Shown in pieces: positions 3,656 to 31,648 of a stretch of 32,216 nucleotides of DNA. The notes under the pieces were generated by a model. It did no database searches, was not told where the DNA came from, and worked only from the letters and a program-made list of their open reading frames with translations. The stretch is from an uncultured Candidatus Saccharibacteria bacterium (lineage in GTDB: Bacteria; Patescibacteriota; Minisyncoccia; UBA6257; UBA11618). The position numbers were made by a program, and so were the translations under genes. The stretch is from NCBI GenBank assembly GCA_964368235.1, contig CAYIZY010000002.1, positions 1 to 32,216 on the forward strand, written 5' to 3'. Positions within the stretch are counted from its first letter, which is position 1; every line of letters begins with the position of its first letter.

Positions 3656-5046
3656 TATTTTTTCTTAGTTTGTTTTTTGATTTCTAATCCTAACTCATCT
3701 AACTGCTTTTTGTCTACCTCGCTGGGCGCTTCCATCATCAAATCACGACCATCGCCAGTTTTAGGGAAAGCAATTACCTCACGGATATTTGGCTCATTCA
3801 TGACAATCGCCATAAAGCGATCTAATCCCATTGCAATACCACCTTCTGGTGGCGCGCCATAAGAAAACGCCTCGATCATGTGACCAAAATTATTTTTAAT
3901 TCTCTCCTCATCCATACCTATAATTTCAAAAACTCTTTTTAACGCCTCTGGTTTAAAATTACGAATACTACCTCCGCCAATTTCATATCCGTTAAGCGCC
4001 AGGTCATATTGGGTAGTTAAAATTTTATCGATATTTTTTTTAGATATTAATAAGTCCATATGCTCATCTTTGGGTTTAGAAAACGGATTGTGCGTAAAAG
4101 TATAGCCGCCTTCTTCAGTTTCCTCAAAAAATGGGAAATCAATAATCCAACAAAATGCGAGTTCAAATTTATCATTTTTATCTTTACGCAAATCTGGTTT
4201 ATCAGAGTTATATTTTTTCATCGCTTCGGCATGAGTTAAACGAGGAAAAGGTTTTTGGGTAATTTTATGCTCTGGAAATAAAACTTCTACCATTTTTATA
4301 TAAAGATCTTCGATTAAATCCATCACATCTTCCCTTTCAGCAAAACTAATTTCCAAGTCCAGTTGTGTAAATTCTGGCTGACGATCGCCTCGAGTATCTT
4401 CATCGCGAAAGCAACGGGCGATTTGAAAATATCTCTCCAAACCAGAAACCATAAATAACTGCTTATATTGCTGAGGAGACTGAGGTAAAGCGTAAAACTT
4501 TCCTGTCTGAATTCTGGAAGGAATTAAATAATCCCTCGCCCCTTCTGGTGTGGATTTAGAAATGATTGGCGTTTCAATTTCAATAAAATCTTGTTTAGTT
4601 AAATGGTTACGTATAAATTCATTAACCGCATAGCGCATACGTAAATTTTTCTGCAATCTAGCGCGGCGTAAATCTAAATAGCGATATTTCAGTCGCGATT
4701 CTTCACCAATTTCATAGCCATCAGTGTCAATAGAAATTGGCAATGTCTGCGCTTCATTTAAGACCTCTAATTCTTTTACAAGCACTTCGTGATGGCCATT
4801 GGGAAGATTTAGATTGACCATTTTTTCTGGACGCTTATTCACCGTGCCAGTAATTTTTATAACCCACTCTGGGCGCAATTTTTCCACCTCTGGAGTGACT
4901 TTGGTAAAAACACATTGGACAATACCGCTTCGGTCCCGCAAATCAATAAAAACAATCTTGCCGTGATCTCGCCTCACAGAAACCCAACCCTTGAGCACTA
5001 CTTCTTTGCCCTCGTGATGCGCAATGTCATTAGCTAAAATTCTCAT
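3655..5046 (-). CDS. aspS: aspartyl-tRNA synthetase, bacterial type but lacking the GAD insertion domain
   Basis: 463 aa. It has an N-terminal OB fold, motif 2 FRDEDTRGDRQPEFTQLDLE and motif 3 GGIAMGLDRFMAIV...IREVIAFPK. SDKPDLRKDKNDKFELAFCWIIDFPFFEE joins directly what flanks the roughly 130-aa GAD domain in E. coli AspRS. Confidence 0.95.
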   Translation of the reverse strand: MRILANDIAHHEGKEVVLKGWVSVRRDHGKIVFIDLRDRSGIVQCVFTKVTPEVEKLRPEWVIKITGTVNKRPEKMVNLNLPNGHHEVLVKELEVLNEAQTLPISIDTDGYEIGEESRLKYRYLDLRRARLQKNLRMRYAVNEFIRNHLTKQDFIEIETPIISKSTPEGARDYLIPSRIQTGKFYALPQSPQQYKQLFMVSGLERYFQIARCFRDEDTRGDRQPEFTQLDLEISFAEREDVMDLIEDLYIKMVEVLFPEHKITQKPFPRLTHAEAMKKYNSDKPDLRKDKNDKFELAFCWIIDFPFFEETEEGGYTFTHNPFSKPKDEHMDLLISKKNIDKILTTQYDLALNGYEIGGGSIRNFKPEALKRVFEIIGMDEERIKNNFGHMIEAFSYGAPPEGGIAMGLDRFMAIVMNEPNIREVIAFPKTGDGRDLMMEAPSEVDKKQLDELGLEIKKQTKKK

Positions 5047-5055
5047 GAGAAAATT

Positions 5056-5916
5056 CTACCATTTTTGAACACTTATATTCAAATTCCCTTCCTCTAATAC
5101 TGCTTTTATCGTTCCATTTTGGTCAGTGCGGAAGATTTGGGCGCCGCTGGATTGCAAGCGGCTAAGTAGAGCTGGTTTGGGATGGCCATATGGATTGCGC
5201 GCTCCAACACCAATCACAGAAATTTGAGGCCTTACTGCGCGAAGCCACTCATTACTGGCAGAATTAGCCGAGCCATGATGGCTGACTTTCAATAAATTCG
5301 CGGTTAAATCTTTATAGTCCCGCATCAAATTTTTCTCCACCTTAAAATTTATATCACCGGTAAATAGCCCTTTAAAATTTTCCTTCTCTAACATAAAGAC
5401 AAGGGTATTATCATGCATGTCTTTTTGACCAGTTTTTTCCGGCGAAAGAAAATTTAAAACCAGATCTTTGTATTTTACTTTGTCCCCCTTTCCCAAATTA
5501 ATATGTTTTATATTTTCTTCTGCTAAAACTTTTTTAAAATAATCATATTGGGAAATTGTATGATCATGTCCACTGTCAATAAATACTCCCACGTCATAAT
5601 TCTTTAAAACATCGGTAAGGCCTCCAAAGTGATCTAAGTGCGGATGACTCAAAATAACTAAATCAATATAACGATCTGTTGGCGACATTACTTTTGATAA
5701 ACTCTCCAAAACTTTTGCGTCCGGGCCGCCATCAACTAAAATATCTACGCCATCAATGGTAATTAATTCACTATCACCTTGCCCAACATCCAAAAAATAC
5801 ATTACGACAGCTTGCCCTGAGTCGGATCGAAGGGAAGGAAATAAAATCCACCCCCACAAAACCAAATCAAAAGTAACCGCCAAGCATGCTAGTAACTTTA
5901 ATGACCGCGAGTTCAT
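5056..5916 (-). CDS. comEC: ComEC C-terminal part: TM helix plus metallo-beta-lactamase domain
   Basis: 286 aa. Motifs FLDVGQGDSELI and LSHPHLDHFGG plus a later KVSHHGS give the MBL fold typical of the ComEC/Rec2 C-terminus. It has its own ATG and an N-terminal hydrophobic helix. It overlaps the upstream ComEC ORF by 50 nt in another frame. Confidence 0.85.
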   Translation of the reverse strand: MNSRSLKLLACLAVTFDLVLWGWILFPSLRSDSGQAVVMYFLDVGQGDSELITIDGVDILVDGGPDAKVLESLSKVMSPTDRYIDLVILSHPHLDHFGGLTDVLKNYDVGVFIDSGHDHTISQYDYFKKVLAEENIKHINLGKGDKVKYKDLVLNFLSPEKTGQKDMHDNTLVFMLEKENFKGLFTGDINFKVEKNLMRDYKDLTANLLKVSHHGSANSASNEWLRAVRPQISVIGVGARNPYGHPKPALLSRLQSSGAQIFRTDQNGTIKAVLEEGNLNISVQKW

Positions 5917-7177
5917 ATGTGAGCAGTATATTTACCAACCAACCCAATGGCAAGCTTAAATAATAAGAAATAAAGCCAGCGGCGCCAGTCAAAAACCCCA
6001 AACCCATTGTCAAAGGAATAAAAAGCGCGATTAAAGGATTAGAAATAATTCCCCAGGGCGAAGCATAACCTAATTTCAAAAACAAAACCGGCAAAACCAC
6101 TGCCTCCGCGGAAACAGTCGTTAAAATTTCATCCTTAAGCCAAAGTTTCTTCTTTAATAATTTTGGAAGGTAACCTTCCAAAATTGGTTTTAAATAAACA
6201 ATTCCCATCAAGGCTAAAAATGAAAGCTGGAATCCCAAATCAAAAACTAAAACTTTTGGATTAAACAAGACCATAATCAGAGCAGCAGTCGTGATTGCAT
6301 TACGAATATTAAATAACCTTCCAGATTGCTCAGCTAAAATGACAATAAATCCCATAATCGCCGCACGAATAATAGAGGCCTCAGCGCCGGTCATTAATAC
6401 AAATAAAATAATCGAAAAACAAGTCAAAAAAATTGCTCTTCTTCGAGATACAAACAATAGAAAAAAAGCTCCTAGATAATTAACGATAATTAAAATATTA
6501 AAGCCGGAAAGCGCCACTAAGTGCAAAGTTCCACTTTGGCGAAATTGCTCTTCCAGTTCTTTAGAAAATTCCGAGCGACCTCCTACTGTTAATCCAGAAA
6601 GAAAAACCGCTTGATTATAAGGTAAAACTTTTTTTAAATTATTTTCAAAATCATTTCTTATTTTCAACAAATACTTTTTAATTAACCAGCCTCGTCCACT
6701 TTCTATTAATTTAATAGATGGCTTATAAACAACGCCATTTATAAACTCTGACTTACTTTTACTTATTTTACCTTCAACTTTTATATAATCTCCATAATTA
6801 AAAGCTGGGTAGCGAAATGTTTCTATTTTCAGTTTTATTTCTGGTGAATCTGTTTTAACTGTGAGCTCTTGCCCATTAATTTTCGGATCAACTTTTTCCA
6901 CAGTTGCATGAAATTTAATTTTTTGATCAAAGACTGGAGTGGGATGTTTTTGAAAATAATCAAAAACATGAAAATAAATTGCGCCAAGTAAAATAAAGAG
7001 GACTAAAAAAATACGGCCCGCCCGGAGCCGTAACAATATTCCCAAAATTAAAGTCGCTACAAAAATCCAAATAATCTTATAAGAAAAAAGTTGTGTTGCC
7101 GAACCCAATAATACACCAAGCAAGAAAAAAGAGCTCGTCCAGAAAAATAAATCGTGCAATGGAAGTTTTTTAACCAT
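5867..7177 (-). CDS. comEC: ComEC N-terminal part: OB-like DUF4131 region plus polytopic competence channel domain
   Basis: 436 aa. N-terminal TM helices are followed by a soluble beta-rich segment (KFHATVEKVDPKINGQELTV..) and then many TM helices with GTLHLVALSGFNI, the ComEC competence-domain signature. It ends with TGA at 5869-5867. Confidence 0.85.
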   Translation of the reverse strand: MVKKLPLHDLFFWTSSFFLLGVLLGSATQLFSYKIIWIFVATLILGILLRLRAGRIFLVLFILLGAIYFHVFDYFQKHPTPVFDQKIKFHATVEKVDPKINGQELTVKTDSPEIKLKIETFRYPAFNYGDYIKVEGKISKSKSEFINGVVYKPSIKLIESGRGWLIKKYLLKIRNDFENNLKKVLPYNQAVFLSGLTVGGRSEFSKELEEQFRQSGTLHLVALSGFNILIIVNYLGAFFLLFVSRRRAIFLTCFSIILFVLMTGAEASIIRAAIMGFIVILAEQSGRLFNIRNAITTAALIMVLFNPKVLVFDLGFQLSFLALMGIVYLKPILEGYLPKLLKKKLWLKDEILTTVSAEAVVLPVLFLKLGYASPWGIISNPLIALFIPLTMGLGFLTGAAGFISYYLSLPLGWLVNILLTYELAVIKVTSMLGGYF

Positions 7178-7190
7178 TCAGAAGATGGTA

Positions 7191-7619
7191 TCAGGAAGGC
7201 GTCCCAGAAGCCAAGCGAAAAATTACCTCTTGTAATTTTTTAAAACTTTCGTCATCAGATAAGAAATCCAAAGGCTTGCCATTTAGTTCTAAATTCGGTG
7301 ATTGCAGCCATTGTAAAATAAATTCCCATTTCGCAACATCGCTCAAGGCACCAAAAAGCCAATTTAAACGGTTAAATCGCCCATGAACCCTCTCAAACTT
7401 TTCTTGAAAAATTTGACCCCCATTCCACATAATTCCGGGAAAATCTATTGTGCTTATATCAAGCAACTCCGATATTTGTTTTCCTTGATTAATAGTAAAA
7501 TCAGAACAATTAAATAATTTTTGGAGGAATATACGAAGTCTCTCGCGCCATTCTTTTTTTGGTTGAGCAATAAAAAATTCGACATCATTATGCCAATCTT
7601 TCTGTTCGTAGTCGTTCAT
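7191..7619 (-). CDS. hypothetical protein with a DUF2384 (Xre/MbcA/ParS antitoxin C-terminal) like domain
   Basis: SD AAAGGAGAAAAATA precedes the ATG at 7619, and the track start at 7688 adds 23 aa with no SD. The C-terminus WLQSPNLELNGKPLDFLSDDESFKKLQEVIFRLASGTPS resembles the DUF2384 toxin-binding domain. The central FTINQGKQISELLDIS is HTH-like. Confidence 0.5.
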   Translation of the reverse strand: MNDYEQKDWHNDVEFFIAQPKKEWRERLRIFLQKLFNCSDFTINQGKQISELLDISTIDFPGIMWNGGQIFQEKFERVHGRFNRLNWLFGALSDVAKWEFILQWLQSPNLELNGKPLDFLSDDESFKKLQEVIFRLASGTPS

Positions 7620-7727: not shown

Positions 7728-8816
7728 CTAATATTTGATGATTCCGCCGCCAAGCATTTCGCCAGTTTTTGAATAAAAGACAGCCGATTGACCGGGGGCA
7801 ACAAATTTTTGAGCCTTATCGAAGATAAGGCGAAACCCTGAGTTCGTCGAAGGGTTGCGGATTAAAATAGCTCTTGCAAGAGGTTGGCGGTAACGCACTC
7901 TAGCAAAAATAGATATTGGATATTGGATATTGGATATTGGATTTATTATATTTATATTTACTAAACTAACTTCTTTTCGATATAGAGCTTTGTTATTTTT
8001 GCCTTCAGCAACAATGATTGAATTTGTTTTTATATTTTTTTCGGCAATATATCTTGGCTTGGCTGAACCACCAATTCCTAATCCGTGACGCTGTCCGATT
8101 GTATAAAAATGGGCGCCATTGTGTTCACCAATTTTTTCTCCGACCATATTTAAAACGACCCCCTTTTTTTTCGGAAGGTAACCTTCCAAAAATTCTGGCA
8201 GAGAAACTTGGCCTAAAAAACAAATCCCTTGCGAATCTTTTTTCTCCGCCGTAATCAAGCCAAATTTTTTTGCCATTTGGCGAACTTGAGGTTTTGTATA
8301 TTCGCCGATTGGGAATAGGCAGTACCTTAATTGTTTTTGAGTCAGTGTCCAGAGAAAATAGGATTGGTCTTTATTTTTGTCTTTTGCAGAAATTAACGAA
8401 TAACGAATCTTTTTCGTATTAAATTCGTTATTCGTTAATAAACGCACATAATGCCCGGTCGCTACATAATCCGCGCCTAATTCCAAAGCCCTCTTTAAAA
8501 AAATCCCGAATTTAATTTCCTTATTGCACATCACGTCCGGATTGGGCGTCAGGCCATTTTTATAACCATCAATCATATACTGGACTACCTTCTCTTTATA
8601 TTCTTTTTCTAAATCAAAAACATAAAAAGGAATTTTTAACTGCTCGGCCACGCGGCGCGCATCATCAGCATCTTGCTCACCACACCCATTTACGTTGTAA
8701 GATTTAATAAAAATACCCACAACATCAAAACCACGCTTTTTTAAAAGCGCCGCTGTTACTGAAGAATCCACTCCTCCACTCATTCCTACAAAAACTTTAC
8801 TTGCTTTCTTTGTCAT
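7728..8816 (-). CDS. mnmA: tRNA-specific 2-thiouridylase MnmA
   Basis: 362 aa. It has the PP-loop VGMSGGVDSSV, ATGHYVR, NKDQSYFLW, the GICFLG cysteine and the C-terminal APGQSAVFY...GGGII. Confidence 0.95.
   Translation of the reverse strand: MTKKASKVFVGMSGGVDSSVTAALLKKRGFDVVGIFIKSYNVNGCGEQDADDARRVAEQLKIPFYVFDLEKEYKEKVVQYMIDGYKNGLTPNPDVMCNKEIKFGIFLKRALELGADYVATGHYVRLLTNNEFNTKKIRYSLISAKDKNKDQSYFLWTLTQKQLRYCLFPIGEYTKPQVRQMAKKFGLITAEKKDSQGICFLGQVSLPEFLEGYLPKKKGVVLNMVGEKIGEHNGAHFYTIGQRHGLGIGGSAKPRYIAEKNIKTNSIIVAEGKNNKALYRKEVSLVNINIINPISNIQYPISIFARVRYRQPLARAILIRNPSTNSGFRLIFDKAQKFVAPGQSAVFYSKTGEMLGGGIIKY
7912..7943. repeat. tandem heptamer (GATATTG x4 plus a partial unit) inside mnmA
   Basis: GATATTG GATATTG GATATTG GATATTG GATT was read directly at 7912-7943. 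It translates on the minus strand as NPISNIQYPIS. Confidence 0.9.
8392..8439. repeat. 17-bp perfect inverted repeat in frame inside mnmA
   Basis: ATTAACGAATAACGAAT (8392-8408) and ATTCGTTATTCGTTAAT (8423-8439) are exact reverse complements separated by 14 nt. They encode LLTNNEFNTKKIRYSLIS between GHYVR and NKDQSYFL. Confidence 0.9.
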
Positions 8817-11401: not shown

Positions 11402-11480
11402 TTTTGGATTTTGGATATTAGATTTTGGATTTTAGGTTTTTTAATCGTCCCAACATCCAACATCTAAAATCTAACATCTA
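11402..11480. repeat. imperfect palindrome built from TTGGAT/TTAGAT-type 7-8 nt units
   Basis: The left arm is TTTTGGATTTTGGATATTAGATTTTGGATTTTAGG. The reverse complement of the right arm is TAGATGTTAGATTTTAGATGTTGGATGTTGG. They share a 9-nt perfect core TTAGATTTT with transition mismatches around it. The element fills the gap between two minus-strand genes. Confidence 0.5.
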
Positions 11481-12707
11481 TTCTACAGGCAGTGTAGAAG
11501 GTGGCGTACCTTTTTTAGCTTCTACTCGCTGTAATCCAGGCGCTTCCACTATAGAGCTTGGATAATGATAAATAGTTGCCAGTTCTTCAATATTTAACAT
11601 CGAAAACTTATTTTTTGGAAAAACCCTATAACGGTAACGCTCAAAAAGACGTCTTTTCTTAGCCCAAATGCCTCGTTGCTTAAAAGGTTGACGACCGATT
11701 GTTAATGTTGGTTTATCAGGCTTGATTCCATTCATATTATGAGTATTGAATTGGCGGAAAAAACCTAGAAAACTGGTAATTATAGAGCCGCTAAAAACAT
11801 CTTTCCTGGCAATATACATCCATCGCATACCGGTCTCAAAAGCTAATTTTCCTACTTTTATTTCCATCGCCTTAACAACATCGGACTCGCCAGGCGTTAA
11901 TCTTATTACTTCCTTTTTTTCCTCTTTTTCTTCTTCCCAGACGGGCTGTTGGAATGGTGATAAAAATAAATTATTTAAAAATTCCCCACTCTTTTTTATG
12001 TAATTGGCTTTCTTTTCAGGTTTTGTCCTTTTAGCTTCTTTGGCTATCACTTTTTTAGCCTCTTTAGTCCACTCGGCATCAGTTGGCCTAATTAAAATTT
12101 GAAACCAAACCATCTCCCCTTCTTTTAATTTAGATAAAGCTTCCAACAAAACAGCCATTGTATCGGCTCGCTCTTCTTTCTCAAGTGGTTGGTTCCAATA
12201 AGACCAGACACGAATTGGAAAAGCGTCTTTATTGGCTAAAATCATTTCCGCCCCAAAAAGATTGTAAGTATTATTCGGCACAACACTGGGAAGAATATTT
12301 GTATAATCATCAACTAGATCAATTTCGGCATCGGAATACTGGGAATAAACTGCCGATTCGAAAAGATGACGATGGTTTTTCTGGGTTCTAATGTAGAAAG
12401 CGACGCTACCACCAGCGGCAGCAATCTCAAAAGATGTCCAGTCCTCAACCATTCCCTCCCAATAAATTTGGGATAGGCGAAGACCATGGGAAAAAGTGGA
12501 GTAGGCAGCGCTGAATATCTGTTCCATTGCCAGGGGCGTCCTAGGATTGTCTTTAGGAACACGTATCCGAAGGGTGATCCATTTCATATTCATAATATAG
12601 GAAATACGAATATAAAATAACCAAAATTTTAAAAATATGAAAAACAAAATAACCGGAATCACCAGCCACCAAATATTAGACCAAATATTGTAAATTACTG
12701 CAATCAC
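11478..12707 (-). CDS. membrane-anchored hypothetical protein, upstream partner of the TraD-like ATPase
   Basis: 409 aa with a GTG start. An N-terminal TM (IWWLVIPVILFFIFLKFWLFYI) is followed by a large soluble domain. It lies 78 nt upstream of the ATPase gene on the same strand. No family is recognised by eye. Confidence 0.65.
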   Translation of the reverse strand: MIAVIYNIWSNIWWLVIPVILFFIFLKFWLFYIRISYIMNMKWITLRIRVPKDNPRTPLAMEQIFSAAYSTFSHGLRLSQIYWEGMVEDWTSFEIAAAGGSVAFYIRTQKNHRHLFESAVYSQYSDAEIDLVDDYTNILPSVVPNNTYNLFGAEMILANKDAFPIRVWSYWNQPLEKEERADTMAVLLEALSKLKEGEMVWFQILIRPTDAEWTKEAKKVIAKEAKRTKPEKKANYIKKSGEFLNNLFLSPFQQPVWEEEKEEKKEVIRLTPGESDVVKAMEIKVGKLAFETGMRWMYIARKDVFSGSIITSFLGFFRQFNTHNMNGIKPDKPTLTIGRQPFKQRGIWAKKRRLFERYRYRVFPKNKFSMLNIEELATIYHYPSSIVEAPGLQRVEAKKGTPPSTLPVE

Positions 12708-14666: not shown

Positions 14667-15895
14667 TGTTTTGCAAAAACTTTTAATACTGTTCGAGTAA
14701 CAATAATTGCGCTAAACATACTAATAATTACACCCAATAAAAGTGTCAACGCAAAACCACGAACAAAACTGGTCATAAAATAATATAAAATAACAGATGT
14801 TAAAATCGTGGAAATATTTGAATCACGAATTGATGGCCAGGCTCGGCGAAAACCCTCTTCAATAGCTGCGGTATTAGAAACACCTTTTTTAATTTCTTCT
14901 TTTCTTCTTTCAAAAATCAAGACATTGGCATCTACTGCCATGCCAATAGAAAGAATAAAACCAGCAATACCGGCCAGCGTCATTGTCACACCGAATAATT
15001 TATAAACCGCCAAGGTAAGAAATATATAAATTACCAAAGCAAAAGCGGCGGCCAAACCATACCAATGGTAATAAGCCAACATAAAAATAATGACCAATAT
15101 CGTACCAATTAATCCAGCCCAAATAGTTTTATTTAAGGAGTCGGCTCCAAGGCCGGCGCCAATCGTTTGTTGATTGACTAAAGTAATAGGGGCGGGCAAA
15201 GCTCCGGCATTAAATCTCTCCACCATTTGACGAGCCTCAACAACTGTAAAATTACCAGTGATACTTGCCTTTCCTCCAGAAATTCTCTCCTGAACAACCG
15301 GCATTTCAATTAATTGGTTATCTAAAAAGATTGCGACTGGTTTGCTGATATTTTTTGCCGTTAGCTCTTCAAAAATTTTTGCCCCCTCATCATTAAAAGA
15401 AATGGTAACGCTTGGACGGCCAGTGGTTGGATCAAAAACTAATTGCGCACCAGACACATAGCGACCATTGAGATTGGTAAAAATAAATTTAGGATTATTT
15501 GGATCGGTAGCATCAACTTCGGCAAAGTTTAGGAAAGGAGTTTCTCCAATTTCTTTTATGGCTTCTGAAACGTCTTTAATTCCAGCTAATTCTACCACTA
15601 AACGATAATTTTCACCGGCCTTAGAAGTAAAAACCTGGGGCTCACTGACACCAAAAAGATTAACTCTTTTTTCAATCACATCACGCAAACCATTAACGAC
15701 TGATTCACGATCGGTAGACTGAATGCCAGTCAAATCAACTTGATAGACCAGATGACTGCCACCAACTAAATCTAAGCCGAGACGCCAATTACGAAAATTA
15801 TAGTTTTTATCAAAAATTGGCGGATAAACAAAAACCGCTGCTAAAAGCGTCACTGCCACCACAAGAATTAAAACGTAAACATTTCTTTTACGCAT
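14663..15895 (-). CDS. secD: protein translocase subunit SecD
   Basis: 410 aa. Motifs LGLDLVGGSHLVYQVD and VSEPQV, plus the C-terminal TM bundle with GMAVDANVLIFERRKEE, are present. Confidence 0.93.
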   Translation of the reverse strand: MRKRNVYVLILVVAVTLLAAVFVYPPIFDKNYNFRNWRLGLDLVGGSHLVYQVDLTGIQSTDRESVVNGLRDVIEKRVNLFGVSEPQVFTSKAGENYRLVVELAGIKDVSEAIKEIGETPFLNFAEVDATDPNNPKFIFTNLNGRYVSGAQLVFDPTTGRPSVTISFNDEGAKIFEELTAKNISKPVAIFLDNQLIEMPVVQERISGGKASITGNFTVVEARQMVERFNAGALPAPITLVNQQTIGAGLGADSLNKTIWAGLIGTILVIIFMLAYYHWYGLAAAFALVIYIFLTLAVYKLFGVTMTLAGIAGFILSIGMAVDANVLIFERRKEEIKKGVSNTAAIEEGFRRAWPSIRDSNISTILTSVILYYFMTSFVRGFALTLLLGVIISMFSAIIVTRTVLKVFAKQ

Positions 15896-18020: not shown

Positions 18021-18958
18021 GGACTATAGTTAATTATAACATCCTCTACGATTGGACTATAGGTTTGATAAATATCGGTTCGCAAAAAAACTTTATAGCG
18101 GAAATATCGCTTATTAACATGGCCTTTTATTTCCTTAAAAATACTTGGTCCAGTTGGTCGATAAAATGTACTTGCTGTTTGATCGTCACCAACAAAAGTC
18201 CACGGACCAGCATCGCTATTAGACGAAGCGATCTGAAATTCAACAATCGTACTACTATCAACAGAATTACCTTTCCACATAATAGAATTTAAAACTACGC
18301 CATCAATACTGCCGCTGTCTAAAACGCTTGAAGTAAGATTAGCAGATTGCACAGTAGATCCAGCGGAAGTTTTTACTTTATAAGTATATGCTGTAGTATT
18401 CGTATTATTTCCTCCGCAAGCGCCGGTGTCAGTATAGCCATTAGCATCGGTGTCACAATTACTCTTATTAAAACTTATCCAGCCAACAACATCATTCCAG
18501 GCCCAACCGGAAAAATCACCGCCATCAATGTTTACTCCATAAGGAAAAGGACTTTCCTGCACCCCTCCCATATTTGGATCGTGATCATTAGTATAACGAA
18601 AACTGATCCAGCCAATATTTTCACTCCAAGCCCAACCGGCCAAATTTCCACTAAAATCATTAGTGACATTATATGGAATGTTGCAGTTGCTTCCTAACGG
18701 GCCGGTAGCGCAATCAAAAGAAATATTCCCAATCGCCGAAGAATTGGCGTAACCCTCAATTTTATTTCCCCTTACCATTACTGAATTGGTGCCGTAAAAA
18801 TCTATCCAGCCAGTTACGTCATTCCAAGCCCACTTATCAACCGAATCTATATTAGTTGCTCCTTCTGCGCTATTAAAAATTAAAAAAGCAAGTGGAAAAA
18901 TCAAAAACAATAATTTTAAATTTAAAATTTTAAATTTTAAATTAATTTTAGTATCCAT
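18017..18958 (-). CDS. secreted repeat protein (W-x-W-x-x-x-x-G-W-I-x-F repeats) of the pilus-like operon
   Basis: 313 aa with a signal peptide ending ..FNSAEG. There are three clear repeats: WAWNDVTGWIDF, WAWSENIGWISF and WAWNDVVGWISF. The C-terminal beta-rich domain ends ..RYFRYKVFLRTDIYQTYSPIVEDVIINY. Confidence 0.7.
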   Translation of the reverse strand: MDTKINLKFKILNLKLLFLIFPLAFLIFNSAEGATNIDSVDKWAWNDVTGWIDFYGTNSVMVRGNKIEGYANSSAIGNISFDCATGPLGSNCNIPYNVTNDFSGNLAGWAWSENIGWISFRYTNDHDPNMGGVQESPFPYGVNIDGGDFSGWAWNDVVGWISFNKSNCDTDANGYTDTGACGGNNTNTTAYTYKVKTSAGSTVQSANLTSSVLDSGSIDGVVLNSIMWKGNSVDSSTIVEFQIASSNSDAGPWTFVGDDQTASTFYRPTGPSIFKEIKGHVNKRYFRYKVFLRTDIYQTYSPIVEDVIINYSP

Positions 18959-19622
18959 TTATTTTAATCGCTCCCTTAACTCCGCTAGATCCACCGTCGG
19001 CCACAGCAGTAGCAGTGTCGTATTTTGTAACGTCAATATAAGAACTCGATTGGCCACTCCCACCAGACCAATCAGTTTGTCTAATAGAAGTATTACGAGT
19101 TCGCGTTATATATTGTGATAATTTTAGATCGTAATTTTTCTCAGCCATTGTCCACTTAACAATAATCGTTGCTTTTTGAGTGGATTGATCTTCAGTAGAA
19201 CCACCGGTGCAACTTCCCGATTGAACTCCAAAAATTGACCCATCACTTAAACGACAAATATTTTCCAGAAAAAAATGACGGGTATAACTTATGTTGGAGA
19301 TAGAAATAGCTTCCTCACCAGAACGCCATTCTAAAGGCGTCCCAATTAAATAATATTTGTTAGCTGATCCTTTGTTTAAATTATAAAATCCTCTTGTTGC
19401 GGCACAGCTACCAGAAGATACGCAAAACCATTTTGATTCAGCATAGATTGATAAATTTTCTGCCAACTCTTGAACTAAAAAGGTTGCTGTTTGACGTTCT
19501 TTGTTGCGAGCATTTCCAAGACTGCTAATACTTAAAAGATTACTGGCTCCCAAAATAAAAATACCGGCAATCGTAGCGCCAATTATAACTTCAATAAGAG
19601 ATTGACCAGATTGCCGATTCAT
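18948..19622 (-). CDS. prepilin-type N-terminal cleavage/methylation domain protein (pseudopilin)
   Basis: 224 aa. MNRQSG/QSLIEVIIGATIAGIFILG has Gly at -1, Glu at +5 and the hydrophobic helix of type IV pilins. There is a QTDWSGG motif near the C-terminus. Confidence 0.75.
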   Translation of the reverse strand: MNRQSGQSLIEVIIGATIAGIFILGASNLLSISSLGNARNKERQTATFLVQELAENLSIYAESKWFCVSSGSCAATRGFYNLNKGSANKYYLIGTPLEWRSGEEAISISNISYTRHFFLENICRLSDGSIFGVQSGSCTGGSTEDQSTQKATIIVKWTMAEKNYDLKLSQYITRTRNTSIRQTDWSGGSGQSSSYIDVTKYDTATAVADGGSSGVKGAIKINGY

Positions 19623-19638
19623 TATTTTTATTATAACA
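19623..19638 (-). promoter_or_regulatory. extended -10 promoter giving an essentially leaderless pseudopilin mRNA
   Basis: On the minus strand TGTTATAAT (19638-19630) is followed by exactly 7 nt (AAAAATA) and the ATG at 19622. There is no SD. Only 27 nt separate the gene from tRNA-Ser. Confidence 0.5.
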
Positions 19639-19649
19639 TATAGGGAAAC

Positions 19650-28448: not shown

Positions 28449-29057
28449 TTAATTAGCTCTTTCAGCATATTTAAAATTTCTTTTTTCTTGTTCTAGGTCA
28501 GAATTACATACATGTCCATAACCACAGGCGTGGATATATTCATGAATAGATACAAAGTGATGATAATTGGGATGTAGTGTAACAAAAATCAAATCCGTAT
28601 TCGGTTCATACATTCCAATCAGCCACATTGCGCCCTCTTTATAAGTTCCGTCTTTATCACAAGTATAAGCATTAGGGTGCCAAAAATAAGTGAATCCATC
28701 TGAATTAATAACCGGCTTTAAGGGAAAACTAAATTTCAATCCATTAATCTCTCGCGTATTTTGTCTACTATCTCTCATTTTTTGTCGGGCAAGGGGAAGT
28801 TCCTTTTCTATCTCCAAAAAAATTTCTATACATTCATTATAAAAACGATTATTATCCATCGGAATATTGGTCAAACTAAATCCTAAACGAGAATATAATT
28901 TTAATCGCTTATTATTGTCATAAAGATCATATTTTATCATTTCAGCAACACGATTTCCGTTTTTGTCTTCAATCCAATCACCGATAATCTGATATTTATT
29001 TAGTTCATTAAGGCCGTCAGAAAAAATCAAAACAAAAAACAGCGAAGAAGCGATCAT
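28449..29057 (-). CDS. small exported protein with zincin motif HEYIHACGYGH (HExxHxxGxxH)
   Basis: 202 aa. SD AAGGAG lies upstream and the N-terminus is signal-like (MIASSLFFVLIFS). An HExxHxxGxxH motif sits 20 aa from the C-terminus. No Met-turn is visible, so metzincin membership is uncertain. Confidence 0.55.
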   Translation of the reverse strand: MIASSLFFVLIFSDGLNELNKYQIIGDWIEDKNGNRVAEMIKYDLYDNNKRLKLYSRLGFSLTNIPMDNNRFYNECIEIFLEIEKELPLARQKMRDSRQNTREINGLKFSFPLKPVINSDGFTYFWHPNAYTCDKDGTYKEGAMWLIGMYEPNTDLIFVTLHPNYHHFVSIHEYIHACGYGHVCNSDLEQEKRNFKYAERAN

Positions 29058-29115: not shown

Positions 29116-29817
29116 CTAAAAATCAATACAAGGATTTTCATCTTCTGAATTAGAAGACTCGCTAAACAATCCAAAAGCGCTTTTAGTAGAAATTTTTTTA
29201 CATTGAGGAACGGTCAGCGCAAATTTTTTTAGTTTTTCTGGAGAATTAATACGACATGAATCATATTCAAATATCTTTTTAGGATAAGAAGGGCCTAAAA
29301 CTTCCTGACAATTGGCTCTCCTCTTACCGCATTGAGGAACGGGTATCGGCCTAACAGGACAATTAGGAGTTTCTTCTTCGCATCTGTTCCATTTTATTAT
29401 TTTTCCGCGAGAACAACGATGATCTACGACACACTCCCCCGGATGGGGACATTTTTTAGCTTGATAATTTTTATCAACGCAGACCATCCGCGAGGAACCC
29501 GGTTTGTTGCCTACGAATTGCTTGCAAATTTCTCCTTCATTACACGTACTGCCGTCATCTCCCCCTCCCCTCCAACTGGGAAAAGTACAACTCTTAAAAG
29601 GGGGTTTATTAGGATGGCACTGCAACAAACTACTATCTTTGATCTTGCACTTTACCTCCTCTGATTGACTGCCACATGACTCACCAATAACACCGCCTTC
29701 CGCTTTACATATTTTGGGTAATTTACATTCAATACGATAACCATGAGTAGCAAAAGAAGTATTCACAGAAAACAAACAAATTAATAGAAACGAAACTGTA
29801 AAAAATAATCTTTTCAT
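29116..29817 (-). CDS. secreted cysteine-rich hypothetical protein
   Basis: 233 aa. The signal peptide is MKRLFFTVSFLLICLFSVNTSFA. There are 19 Cys in the mature part, spaced every 5-15 residues. No family is recognised. Confidence 0.7.
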   Translation of the reverse strand: MKRLFFTVSFLLICLFSVNTSFATHGYRIECKLPKICKAEGGVIGESCGSQSEEVKCKIKDSSLLQCHPNKPPFKSCTFPSWRGGGDDGSTCNEGEICKQFVGNKPGSSRMVCVDKNYQAKKCPHPGECVVDHRCSRGKIIKWNRCEEETPNCPVRPIPVPQCGKRRANCQEVLGPSYPKKIFEYDSCRINSPEKLKKFALTVPQCKKISTKSAFGLFSESSNSEDENPCIDF

Positions 29818-29845
29818 TAATATAATTATATCACAAAATTATCCA
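29815..29845. repeat. 31-bp perfect direct repeat, copy 1 (contains an extended -10 promoter and the ATG of the Cys-rich gene)
   Basis: CATTAATATAATTATATCACAAAATTATCCA is identical to 30815-30845. On the minus strand it reads TGGATAATTTTGTGATATAAT-TATATTA-ATG. Confidence 0.95.
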
Positions 29846-29972
29846 CACACTAACTTTTGCGGCCGCAAGAAATGGGATAGTGAACAAGTTTAAATTTTTT
29901 TGTCAAAATTGGCTTTTTGGCGATGAGCTGCTAACATTCCTACCAGTCGTACCTTGAAAGGGGGAATCGATT

Positions 29973-30608
29973 ATGGAACGCTTTATTTTTAACGTCGAGC
30001 ATTGGCGGCGATTTTATCGAGCCAATATTTCTCGAACGCTCGTCGAGTTGGCGGCGATTTTTCCCTGGAGCGACGAGGTGCTCAATGGGCCGTGTCCCTT
30101 CAATAAAAACAAGCGAGTCAAAGAAACCCACCTCGCTTTTTTTGGTATGCCCACATTGATCAAGAAGCGATTAACGGTAATGGCACTCCAGCGCCTGCAT
30201 CCGCCTTCGGATCAACCAAGATTCTATTTTAGTCACAATCCTGAATATGCGCAGTGGCCTTATGCTAATGAAACCACCTGTGAAGCGCGTTGGCATCTAG
30301 TGTTAAAAAATATTGTGCCTGGTTCGACTCAAACTACCGCTCGCCATCAAGAGGCGTTGTTGCCATTCGAATACGAAATACCCACCACCATTGAAGAGGT
30401 TACCAAAGACATTCTTTGTTTTAAACTGACTCGAGCTAGACCCAATCCTCGATTATGGGCCAGATGTCGGGAAAAGCGTAGCGATGATCACTTGGCTTGC
30501 GCTGGACATTTTAATCGGAATGGCTTGGGCATCAGTTATTGGTGTGGCGCGGCCATCAATGGAGTGGGCCTGGGCGCTTCTCGAAAATTAGAATCTCGGT
30601 TAAGTTAA
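29973..30608 (+). CDS. hypothetical protein (Trp/Arg-rich, compositionally foreign)
   Basis: 211 aa. SD AAAGGGGG lies 8 nt upstream of the ATG. G+C is clearly higher than in all neighbours. No motif is recognisable by eye. Confidence 0.6.
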   Translation: MERFIFNVEHWRRFYRANISRTLVELAAIFPWSDEVLNGPCPFNKNKRVKETHLAFFGMPTLIKKRLTVMALQRLHPPSDQPRFYFSHNPEYAQWPYANETTCEARWHLVLKNIVPGSTQTTARHQEALLPFEYEIPTTIEEVTKDILCFKLTRARPNPRLWARCREKRSDDHLACAGHFNRNGLGISYWCGAAINGVGLGASRKLESRLS

Positions 30609-30713
30609 GACGGACTGTTTCCTAAATAGATAATCTTTAACAAAGAAGACTGAAAGTGTCTTTAATAATCGCAATGCCACCAAAAACTGTGGCTGCGGCG
30701 AGTCCTTTGGCGT

Positions 30714-30750
30714 TTAAAAAACCTGGCAAAAACTAGGTTTTTGATTTTTA
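30714..30750. terminator. bidirectional-looking terminator inside the insert
   Basis: AAAAAACCTGG-CAAAAA-CTAGGTTTTTGATTTTT has a 7-bp stem with one mismatch, with an A-run upstream and a T-run downstream. Confidence 0.5.
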
Positions 30751-30814
30751 GCCTCCCAATAACTGTTTAAAAAATTGTTCCTTGCTCTACCTCCCATGGG
30801 AAAGATCATTTTTA

Positions 30815-30845
30815 CATTAATATAATTATATCACAAAATTATCCA
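30815..30845. repeat. 31-bp perfect direct repeat, copy 2 (4 nt from the 3' end of tRNA-Ala)
   Basis: It is identical to 29815-29845 and the copies start exactly 1,000 nt apart. Here the ATG is followed at once by TAA. Confidence 0.95.
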
Positions 30846-30849
30846 TTAG

Positions 30850-30920
30850 TGGACCTAAGGAGAATCGGACTCCTGCCTCGCCCATGCCATGGGCGCGTAA
30901 TACCACTTTACTATAGGCCC
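30850..30920 (-). tRNA. tRNA-Ala (anticodon GGC), no encoded CCA, atypical T-loop
   Basis: The fold was read by hand: acceptor GGGCCTA/TAGGTCC with the Ala identity pair G3-U70, D-arm GTAA/TTAC, anticodon stem CGCCC/GGGCG with loop ATGGCAT, and T-arm AGGAG-TCCGATT-CTCCT. The T-loop has C where the near-universal U55 is expected. Confidence 0.75.
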
Positions 30921-30976: not shown

Positions 30977-31648
30977 TTAATTAAATACTTTTGTATAAAC
31001 AGTATTATAAATTTTAACTCTTAAACATTCTCTAGTTTTAGATATTTTCTTTTCCTTGTCTTCCCTGGTATATTCACCTCTTACTTTAAAAATTGATCCT
31101 GGTAATTTAGTTGGCCCAATATACCGCCCAACCCATCGCACCTCAATAATAAATTCTTCCTCTGCCAAAACTTTTCTTTTAAATTCTATAACTTGTTTCT
31201 CGTCAGAAAAAAAATAAAGATCAATTAATATTTCAGCCGCCCGTTTGTTTAAAAATCTTACCCTTTCTTCCGAACCCACTCTTTTCAACTCTCTTTTGGC
31301 AAAAAATCCTAGTTTTTTAATAAAATCTTCAACCTTCCTCAAATCCTTTTCATTTTCAAAAATTTTAATAGCGCCATCTCTAACGAGAAAATAGAAAAAT
31401 GAAATACTTACTTGGGCTAGAACATGCTGTTGTTGAATGCAAGTAATATAAGGCACTGGATATTTCGTATAACAATAATCTCGTCTTGGTACGCGCACGC
31501 GACATTTAATAGATTTATTTTCTGCCGAATAATCTAAAATTTCTAATATACACATACTCCATGCCTTATAAATTTTTCGCAAAATAAAAAGTGATTGCTG
31601 AGTTAAATCTTCAGGTAACTTCCAAGAAGTTCTTTTTGGTTTTCTCAC
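30977..31648 (-). CDS. hypothetical protein
   Basis: 223 aa with a GTG start 5 nt after SD GAGGAGG. It has no TM and no family recognisable by eye. Confidence 0.6.
   Translation of the reverse strand: MRKPKRTSWKLPEDLTQQSLFILRKIYKAWSMCILEILDYSAENKSIKCRVRVPRRDYCYTKYPVPYITCIQQQHVLAQVSISFFYFLVRDGAIKIFENEKDLRKVEDFIKKLGFFAKRELKRVGSEERVRFLNKRAAEILIDLYFFSDEKQVIEFKRKVLAEEEFIIEVRWVGRYIGPTKLPGSIFKVRGEYTREDKEKKISKTRECLRVKIYNTVYTKVFN

Follow-up and report, generated by a model that had tools for sequence, protein, structure and literature searches.

How did a GC-rich segment of about 1 kb come to lie between two exact copies of a 31-bp sequence directly beside a tRNA-Ala(GGC) gene, and what does the only sizeable gene on this segment encode? 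The question is raised by the window analyzed here, a stretch of 32,216 nt from contig CAYIZY010000002.1 of an uncultured Candidatus Saccharibacteria bacterium. The window lies within contig Hain_H51_01um_R1_579 (38,998 nt), obtained from the 0.1-µm fraction of groundwater from well H51 of the Hainich aquifer. On balance, we consider it probable that the segment reached a variable site by horizontal transfer as a single-gene insertion, that its cargo is a solitary gene of the type diversified by diversity-generating retroelements (DGRs), and that the promoter of the site was duplicated by a crossover. In kind, this is ordinary gene gain at a variable tRNA-adjacent site and no new kind of mobile element.

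Two features describe the gene. VR denotes the variable repeat of a DGR and TR its template repeat:
29973..30608, plus strand: 211-aa homologue of a Patescibacteria DGR variable protein, solitary and without the N-terminal ~70 aa of the family, with AAGGGGGA 8 nt upstream
30480..30587, plus strand: VR-equivalent region as placed by alignments, residues S170-K205, ending GLGASRK

The 211-aa open reading frame (ORF) was present with its Shine-Dalgarno sequence as the first-pass annotation had described it; the assignment to an unknown family was not upheld. Pfam, NCBIfam and PDB sequence searches with the ORF gave no match. Among 5.8 billion proteins, 28 homologues were detected, mostly ~280 aa long and sharing 34-54% identity over >95% of the ORF, while the protein cluster of the ORF itself had a single member. 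In the alignment the last ~35 residues were hypervariable and ended in a conserved G-x-G-A-S-R-K. A hidden Markov model of the family matched the window protein from position 71 of 287 (E = 5e-87). The first ~70 residues of the longer homologues had no counterpart in the window, and no remnant of them was found upstream of the ATG in any frame.

The closest homologue, P0002 (54% identity), came from the same aquifer sample (locus L004), where genes for bAvd and for a reverse transcriptase (RT; RVT_1) lie downstream of it. This locus contains a 107-108-nt repeat with one copy in the C-terminal coding region of P0002 (6739-6846) and the other 500 nt downstream (7239-7346). The two copies differed at 15 positions, 14 of them adenines of the downstream copy, which is the signature of a DGR with its VR in the gene and its TR downstream. 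Scanning the GTDB species genomes with the family alignment revealed 39 loci, nearly all in genomes labelled as Patescibacteria lineages. Fifteen of these 39 loci, as well as L004 and L069 from metagenomes, had Avd on the minus strand and RT on the plus strand 0.5-1 kb downstream; a TR-like copy with mismatches mainly at A followed the VR by ~500 nt at 14 of these RT-linked loci. The family was not found in IMG/VR, among the INPHARED phages or among the PLSDB plasmids.

The AlphaFold (AF2) model of the ORF had a pLDDT of 88.5 and a pTM of 0.88. All Foldseek matches of the model to the PDB were weak (E above 1); the list was headed by the FGE/C-type-lectin-like EgtB, SenA and OvoA and also included the DGR variable proteins TaqVP (5vf4) and Mtd (1yu2) and the lectin CEL-I. 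A C-type-lectin fold is expected of DGR targets (PMC8144416), and the weak list is consistent with such a fold without proving it. By its sequence relationships, the 211-aa ORF is a homologue of the variable (target) protein of Patescibacteria DGRs.

A role as recombinase, nuclease or HUH protein, for which a structural check had been suggested, was rejected: there was no Pfam, NCBIfam or PDB sequence match, the family has a DGR context, and the fold matches were C-type-lectin/FGE-like with none pointing to recombinases.

The members of this family can be described as predicted ligand-binding proteins in which the C-terminal ~35 residues would normally be rewritten by adenine-specific mutagenic reverse transcription from the TR. 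The closest known system is the cellular DGR lineage that is restricted to Patescibacteria, named clade 2 by Roux et al. (2021; PMC8144416) and the CPR (candidate phyla radiation) set by Wu et al. (2018; PMC5758913). Like the CPR targets described in the former study, the window protein carries no recognisable Pfam or NCBIfam domain, so that a family assignment has been gained for a protein that those databases do not match. It further resembles the targets in its clear homology to proteins of target-TR-Avd-RT cassettes, its hypervariable C-terminus and a GC content above that of the host. Unlike them, it is accompanied on the 39-kb contig by neither RT nor Avd nor TR, its VR 3' end and the following element are not conserved, its N-terminal ~70 residues are missing, and it stands alone between duplicated promoter copies.

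The solitary state of the gene was evident from several searches. Neither RT nor Avd was found in the window by tblastn with the L004 proteins, and no RVT_1 or bAvd Pfam domain is recorded for the 6.8 kb of the contig beyond the window, which hold housekeeping genes. A cognate TR was not detected in the window either: the best other copy of the VR-like 132 nt matched at 59/132, the random level. The sequence that a TR cognate to the window VR would match is GGNCTGGGCGCTTCTCGAAA. Most RT-linked and several solitary copies of the family share an element that spans the end of the VR and continues for ~70 nt, CCCGGAAGTTCTGAACCTTGA...GAGGGCTTG.CCCTC (also in the form GCSTCCCGGAAGTTCTGAACCTTGA...GAGGGCTTG.CCCTC), which probably represents the target-recognition region of the DGR. 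This element is not there in the window, where an unrelated GCTTCTCGAAAATTAGAATCTCGG... without hairpin follows the VR. The window copy thus lacks, on the 39-kb contig, a TR, an RT and the element after the VR that a functional DGR target would be expected to have. The gene, with its own Shine-Dalgarno sequence and its own terminator, most likely represents a retired or "frozen" variant.

Around this region, the stretch across the stop codon of other copies (e.g., L019:6620-6700, L022, L024 and L040) reads CCCGGAAGTTCTGAACCTTGA..CTTGAGGGCTTG.CCCTC..CTTGAGCCTTCGGCGCGAAATTTTTTT, with repeated CTTGA motifs and a GAGGG/CCCTC hairpin. A different hairpin, CGCATAATCGCGAAGCGATTATGCG, was present in three paralogues of one metagenome-assembled genome (MAG; L025, L032 and L034).

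A second solitary, N-terminally short member of the family, P0003 (227 aa; L067:128-811 and L068:193-876), was detected in the sample of the window, beside khpA and trmD. Its VR differed from the L004 TR at 13 adenines and at seven non-adenine positions, and P0003 would thus appear to be a former or drifting remote target of the L004 DGR. The coverage of L004, L067 and the window contig was similar across replicates, and the three may belong to one genome.

The gene might instead still be diversified in trans, by a cassette elsewhere in the genome carrying a TR cognate to 30480-30587; this possibility concerns function only and is compatible with an insertion. Non-adjacent and remote DGR targets are known (PMC5758913), about half of the family loci with enough flanking sequence have no adjacent RT, and the window codons at the variable positions of the family are of the type NNT/NNC (CAT, AAT, AGT, TAT, TGT, GGC and ATC), resembling the products of AAY mutagenesis. 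The L004 cassette and the solitary P0003 also occur in the same sample at similar coverage (14/12.2/7.5, 11.6/7.3 and 14/8.1). Against this, the TR of L004, the sole DGR observed in that sample, fits its own VR at 93 and that of P0003 at 88 of 108 positions, and the window VR at under 70/108. In addition, the VR 3' end and following element that most RT-linked copies conserve are not in the window, the VR did not vary between a Logan contig and the two assemblies for which each base was compared, and the protein cluster is single-membered. We therefore consider an active remote target rather unlikely.

The setting of the insertion was examined by comparison with related genomes. The following features define it:
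28449..29057, minus strand: orf202, the conserved left border, with 46-61% identical homologues beside the protease gene in L058, L061/63 and L064-66
29116..29817, minus strand: Cys-rich 233-aa gene, resident of the variable region, with a signal-peptide-like N-terminus and a host-like GC content at third codon positions (GC3) of 0.29
30849/30850..30920, minus strand: tRNA-Ala(GGC), the 3' end of which is the right border of the variable region; the similarity of L058, L064 and L066 begins at 30848/30849
30977..31648, minus strand: orf223, the conserved right flank, with 72-76% identical homologues beside tRNA-Ala(GGC) in L061, L064 and L066

Homologues of the Cys-rich gene were found neither among the 5.8 billion proteins nor in the GTDB species genomes, and the relatives (L058, L061-63 and L064-66) were therefore located via the protease gene 1.4 kb to the left. 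The Cys-rich protein had a weak C-terminal match (39% over 77 aa) to the gene at the same position in L058. The relatives kept the order protease (plus), orf202 (minus), variable region, tRNA-Ala(GGC) (minus) and orf223 (minus). The tRNA-Arg and tRNA-Ser genes were arranged as in the window in L058 and L064, while L061 was rearranged, with tRNA-Arg on the opposite strand. Between orf202 and tRNA-Ala, each had a different content:
Window: the Cys-rich gene and the 1-kb insert
L064/L066: three small ORFs
L061: a restriction-modification system
L058: the weak Cys-rich homologue, a Band_7 gene, a 334-aa ORF and a GIY-YIG gene

No DGR-type gene was present in the variable region of three related genomes. 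The arrangement is that of a classic tRNA-adjacent variable site.

In L058, the closest Hainich relative, the gene of the 85-aa GIY-YIG protein (14838-15095) adjoins the 3' end of tRNA-Ala (15209-15280), and an IS200/IS605-type Y1 transposase (18948-19640) is located 3.7 kb away; both are possible agents of turnover at the site. Elsewhere in the family, a tRNA gene lies within ~200 nt downstream of the family gene at two loci (L023 and L037). In 120 metagenome loci with the same 5' half of the tRNA-Ala, neither a family gene nor the flanking genes of the window occurred.

The repeat on either side of the insert could be traced to the site itself. Its copies and the promoter on it are:
29797..29845, no strand: direct repeat copy 1, with the exact core 29815-29845 and the imperfect left extension 29797-29814
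30797..30845, no strand: direct repeat copy 2, with the exact core 30815-30845 and the ATG at 30817-30815 (minus strand) followed by TAA
29815..29833, minus strand: putative leaderless promoter and start of the Cys-rich gene as read from the sequence, with the extended -10 TGATATAAT at 29833-29825, a 7-nt spacer and the ATG at 29817-29815

As had been claimed, the window contains exactly two occurrences of the 31-mer CATTAATATAATTATATCACAAAATTATCCA, spaced by 1,000 nt. Copy 2 stops 3-4 nt short of the 3' end of tRNA-Ala, so that the repeat lies wholly outside the tRNA gene. No third site with up to three mismatches was found in the window, and 0/100 shuffles gave a match. A repeat finder extended the repeat leftward to 45 nt (41/45 identical); by direct count 43/49 positions agreed between 29797-29845 and 30797-30845, and the right edge was sharp. 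All six mismatches were confined to the leftmost 18 nt (12/18 identical, against 31/31 in the core), and this distribution makes the uniform decay of a former 49-bp duplication unlikely.

On the minus strand the repeat reads TGGATAATTTTG-TGATATAAT-TATATTA-ATG, i.e., an extended -10 with the ATG 7 nt on. The sequence agreed with the earlier reading of the two copies: the ATG of copy 1 opens the 233-aa Cys-rich ORF (29116-29817), and that of copy 2 directly precedes a TAA. Such a promoter would imply a leaderless mRNA for the Cys-rich gene. The same layout of TATAAT, 6-7 nt and start codon is found at the window genes 18948-19622 and 11478-12707 (both on the minus strand). Comparable promoters were identified in the relatives. 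Directly after tRNA-Ala, L064 has TGGATAAC...TGGATTATAAT-TACATTT-ATG (N7), leading into a gene for a secreted protein. In L058, GGATAAT...TGTGATATTAT-AAAGAC-ATG (N6) is found at the start of the Cys-rich-like gene. These promoters indicate that tRNA-Ala, promoter and first gene formed the ancestral layout, and in the window the insert was placed between two copies of the promoter. We therefore interpret the repeat as the native extended -10, leaderless promoter plus start codon of the site, homologous to the locus promoter of the relatives.

Several genes of the window, all on the minus strand (18948-19622, 11478-12707 and 29116-29817), have TATAAT 6-7 nt before the start and no Shine-Dalgarno sequence, and others have a strong GGAGG; the genome thus seems to mix leaderless genes with genes led by a Shine-Dalgarno sequence.

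A small irregularity was observed beside copy 2. The 13-mer at 30801-30813 matches the reverse complement of 29801-29813 at 12/13 positions and the direct sequence at 10/13, with a chance of ~4e-5 for AT-rich 13-mers. The stretch 29801-29813, which covers codons 2-5 in the Cys-rich gene, is a quasi-palindrome, and only its three non-palindromic positions differ in the direct comparison. A tiny inversion or a templated change may have produced this pattern, and the quasi-palindrome could be an operator-like site.

These observations can be joined in the explanation that we prefer. A circular DNA carrying a copy of the promoter sequence would have met the chromosome, and a single crossover within that sequence, either site-specific with a recombinase acting in trans or by short homology in the manner of Campbell, would have integrated it. 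One promoter copy would then drive the Cys-rich gene, and the other, with its ATG-TAA, would be left beside the tRNA. Such a crossover would explain why the core is identical, why the arm to its left has diverged and why the opposite edge is sharp. It would also account for the lack of a transposase and of terminal inverted repeats, and for a repeat length far above that of transposase duplications. The explanation builds on firm points: the gene family is identified, the contig lacks DGR machinery, the site is variable, and the repeat is homologous to the locus promoter. The crossover within the promoter is what we infer as the most likely step.

Several observations weigh against this explanation. 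A simple crossover does not account for the stretch beside copy 2 that matches better as reverse complement (12/13) than directly (10/13). The repeat does not overlap the tRNA gene, unlike in classical tRNA-targeting integrative elements, and no integrase or recombinase was found in the insert or is on record for the genes of the 39-kb contig. A search for the 31-mer elsewhere, as had been proposed, gave no match in JGI metagenome contigs or IMG/VR, and the non-coding ends of the insert had no DNA match to any other family locus and thus no sign of a unit moving more than once. The relatives are 65-80% identical in flanking proteins, and therefore document a variable site and not the pre-insertion allele. 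Finally, the "frozen" state is deduced from absence on one contig, and a cognate DGR may be located elsewhere in the genome.

If the explanation holds, a DGR variable-protein gene can outlive the separation from its mutagenic machinery and would persist with a "frozen" binding specificity in an ultra-small groundwater bacterium. This bears on how DGR-rich Patescibacteria exchange and retire such genes, and it introduces no new class of element. The locus is in keeping with the view of Roux et al. (2021; PMC8144416), who proposed that DGR targets are modular and recombine.

The duplication need not be a by-product of insertion. A segment from a related strain with the order DGR-type gene, promoter and Cys-rich gene might have replaced part of the variable region, with its junction directly behind the opening codons of the first resident gene, and the two copies would then be the resident and the incoming promoter. 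The similar promoters kept beside tRNA-Ala in L064 and on the Cys-like gene in L058, the resemblance of the diverged stretch by copy 2 to a decayed or rearranged gene start, and the wholesale differences in gene content of this region between relatives would all agree with a replacement. However, 31/31 identity is unexpected for independent promoters, since the L064 and L058 versions differ by many substitutions as well as indels. The host-like GC3 of the Cys-rich gene (0.29, against 0.46 for the DGR-type gene) argues against a joint arrival, and the donor arrangement was not seen. We regard such a replacement as possible, with a low probability.

A bolder proposal would be that the 1,000-bp unit, i.e., 969 bp plus one repeat copy, is a minimal recombinase-less mobile cassette by which finished DGR-type binding proteins are carried from one Patescibacteria genome to another. 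Its integration site would be att-like and embedded in the promoter beside tRNA-Ala, and each side would retain a working promoter. If this were true, DGR targets would be exchangeable modules in their own right. Hints in this direction come from repeat-flanked copies of the family at L028 (89 nt, 83%), L040 (~430 nt, 77%) and L027 (~105-111 nt, 71%), and we consider the proposal unlikely.

In L028, the 89-nt repeat (37-125 and 1647-1735) includes the terminator of the neighbouring gene and surrounds a solitary family gene. In L027, the repeat (5395-5498 and 8599-8705) surrounds a whole target-Avd-RT cassette. The Liptonbacteria MAG with L040 has a duplication of ~430 bp from the alaS 3' end (4469-4899 and 6773-7203; 77% DNA identity), in which the second copy is still an open frame, and the repeats flank a 2.3-kb insert with a 171-aa ORF and a frameshifted family gene and no integrase. 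Repeats around family genes were detected at E < 1e-5 at 2/34 real positions and at 4/220 control positions taken from the same loci, and at E < 0.01 at 6/34 and 17/220, respectively. The excess over controls is not significant, and flanking by repeats is not established as a general rule for family genes.

The repeat could also be a target-site duplication from a staggered cut, made by a transposition-like process or by target-primed reverse transcription, for example of a retro-copied variable-protein mRNA. The repeat encloses a single gene, the first ~70 family codons are missing, which a retro-copy would explain as 5' shortening, and the family neighbours reverse transcriptases. Duplications from target-primed reverse transcription vary in length. 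On the other hand, the 31-49 bp found here are far above known prokaryotic transposase duplications, neither terminal inverted repeats nor a transposase are present, and the imperfect extension is not expected from a fill-in duplication. Moreover, the 127 nt of 5' sequence and the 64 nt after the terminator mean that the ends are not those of an mRNA copy, and short N-terminal forms occur elsewhere in the family (P0003). A staggered cut is thus very unlikely.

The first-pass annotation had also warned that 31 is a common assembler k-mer. The Logan k=31 assembly indeed broke at the repeat, giving a 1,029-nt contig that is exactly 29816-30844, and in a k=31 graph an integrated form is indistinguishable from a circle plus an empty site. 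By default, metaSPAdes uses k = 21, 33 and 55, none of which equals 31. The replicates were assembled separately with metaSPAdes v3.13 (PMC8672522). The R1 contig was identical to the window and the R3 contig differed at one distant base, and both spanned both junctions. The same arrangement in two independent metaSPAdes assemblies makes a k=31 artefact unlikely, and at the contig level these assemblies, together with the imperfect extension of 18 nt, favour an arrangement that is truly integrated. The least probable explanation is accordingly that the assembly inserted a free 1,000-bp circle, or sequence from a different genome with the same 31-mer, into a chromosomal site that was empty: the match between 31 and the Logan k, the ambiguity of the k=31 graph and the spacing of exactly 1,000 would suit it, and it is opposed by the agreement of two separately assembled replicate libraries, by the occurrence of the gene on four contigs of 20-50 kb, by the continuation of the repeat past its exact core and by the implausibility of a 1-kb circle without a replication gene.

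Apart from the gene, the insert carries few features:
29846..30796, plus strand: inserted segment between the repeat copies, GC 0.44-0.49, with no counterpart at the equivalent site of three related genomes
29859..29866, no strand: GCGGCCGC NotI-type palindrome, at the middle of a weak hairpin, 14 nt inward from the left junction
30717..30750, plus strand: terminator-like hairpin (30717-30742, -14.6 kcal/mol) plus T run, downstream of the 211-aa ORF

The first-pass annotation had called the insert compositionally foreign. The contrast is real, with a GC content of 0.44-0.49 against 0.30-0.36 outside and an ORF GC3 of 0.46 that is the highest among the 27 window ORFs (others 0.21-0.43), but it is largely a trait of the family. 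Across the family the gene exceeds its flanks by a mean of +0.12, and by more than +0.05 at 33 of 43 loci. Because this excess occurs in almost every host, it is by itself weak evidence for a recent arrival; a GC content above that of the host is a general property of the family and not a marker of recent transfer. The excess fits the horizontal mobility described for DGRs (PMC5758913) and is not specific for a recent event here.

The DGR-type gene is the sole ORF above 63 aa in the insert, which bears out the earlier remark that no recognisable recombinase is encoded, and a transposase was not found in the insert either. The gene is preceded by 127 nt of unrelated 5' sequence with its own Shine-Dalgarno sequence, and 64 nt separate the terminator from the junction. 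No inverted repeat pairs the two ends of the insert. The GCGGCCGC site and the terminator were recovered as annotated before; the hairpin centred on the former (-6.3 kcal/mol, z = -1.2) was not significant. A 31-codon minus-strand ORF was also present, at 30714-30809, and the coordinates given for it earlier had been one base off.

Compared with known elements, the locus resembles tRNA-associated islets and integrase-less cis-mobilisable elements in having an atypical segment between direct repeats beside a tRNA gene, a variable site content and no integrase. The suggestion of attL/attR-like ends was borne out in part. Direct repeats do surround a segment that is absent from the relatives at a tRNA-adjacent variable site, and site-specific insertion is a possible mechanism. 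Unlike in attL/attR elements, the repeat has no overlap with the tRNA and is the native promoter of the neighbouring gene, and neither an encoded integrase, nor conserved ends, nor copies at other sites were found. As in the target duplications of insertion sequences, the direct repeats abut the inserted segment. They differ from these, as had been noticed from the start, by their length (31-49 bp against the usual 2-15 bp), and also by the imperfect extension and the lack of a transposase and of terminal inverted repeats.

The element e14 and phage 21 integrate into the 3' end of icd and bring a replacement copy. L040 resembles such 3'-end integrators with a replacement copy. The window differs from them in its much shorter repeat of 45-49 bp, which comprises a promoter and the 5' end of a gene instead of a 3' end, and, like L040, in having no integrase.

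Among the cassettes of the family, a conserved non-coding element of ~300 nt was observed between the variable-protein gene and the TR (L004:6930-7240). It is also present in L018, L019, L021, L027, L030, L031, L033, L039, L041, L043, L044, L051 and L069 and not in the window, and it contains the motifs TGCTAATGCAG, CCAGAATA, TAGCGTGCGA, GAACTTCTTGC and CTGCTCCCGAATAAAAT. RNAalifold predicted eight helices with 64 pairs, and compensatory changes on both sides were seen at 45 of these pairs; 96.5% of cells were paired, against 43-51% with slid partners, and 0/500 shuffles reached the observed values. Rfam 15 gave no match at E <= 0.1 for the element in three loci, and the nearest described class comprises the RT-1 to RT-19 motifs (Weinberg et al., 2017; PMC5737381). 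The element is a candidate for a structured 5' part of the DGR template RNA.

Elsewhere in the window, a 29-nt direct repeat with 90% identity (7916-7944 and 11404-11432, 3.5 kb apart) brackets an EF-P gene, a 110-aa ORF and a VirD4/TraG-like gene.

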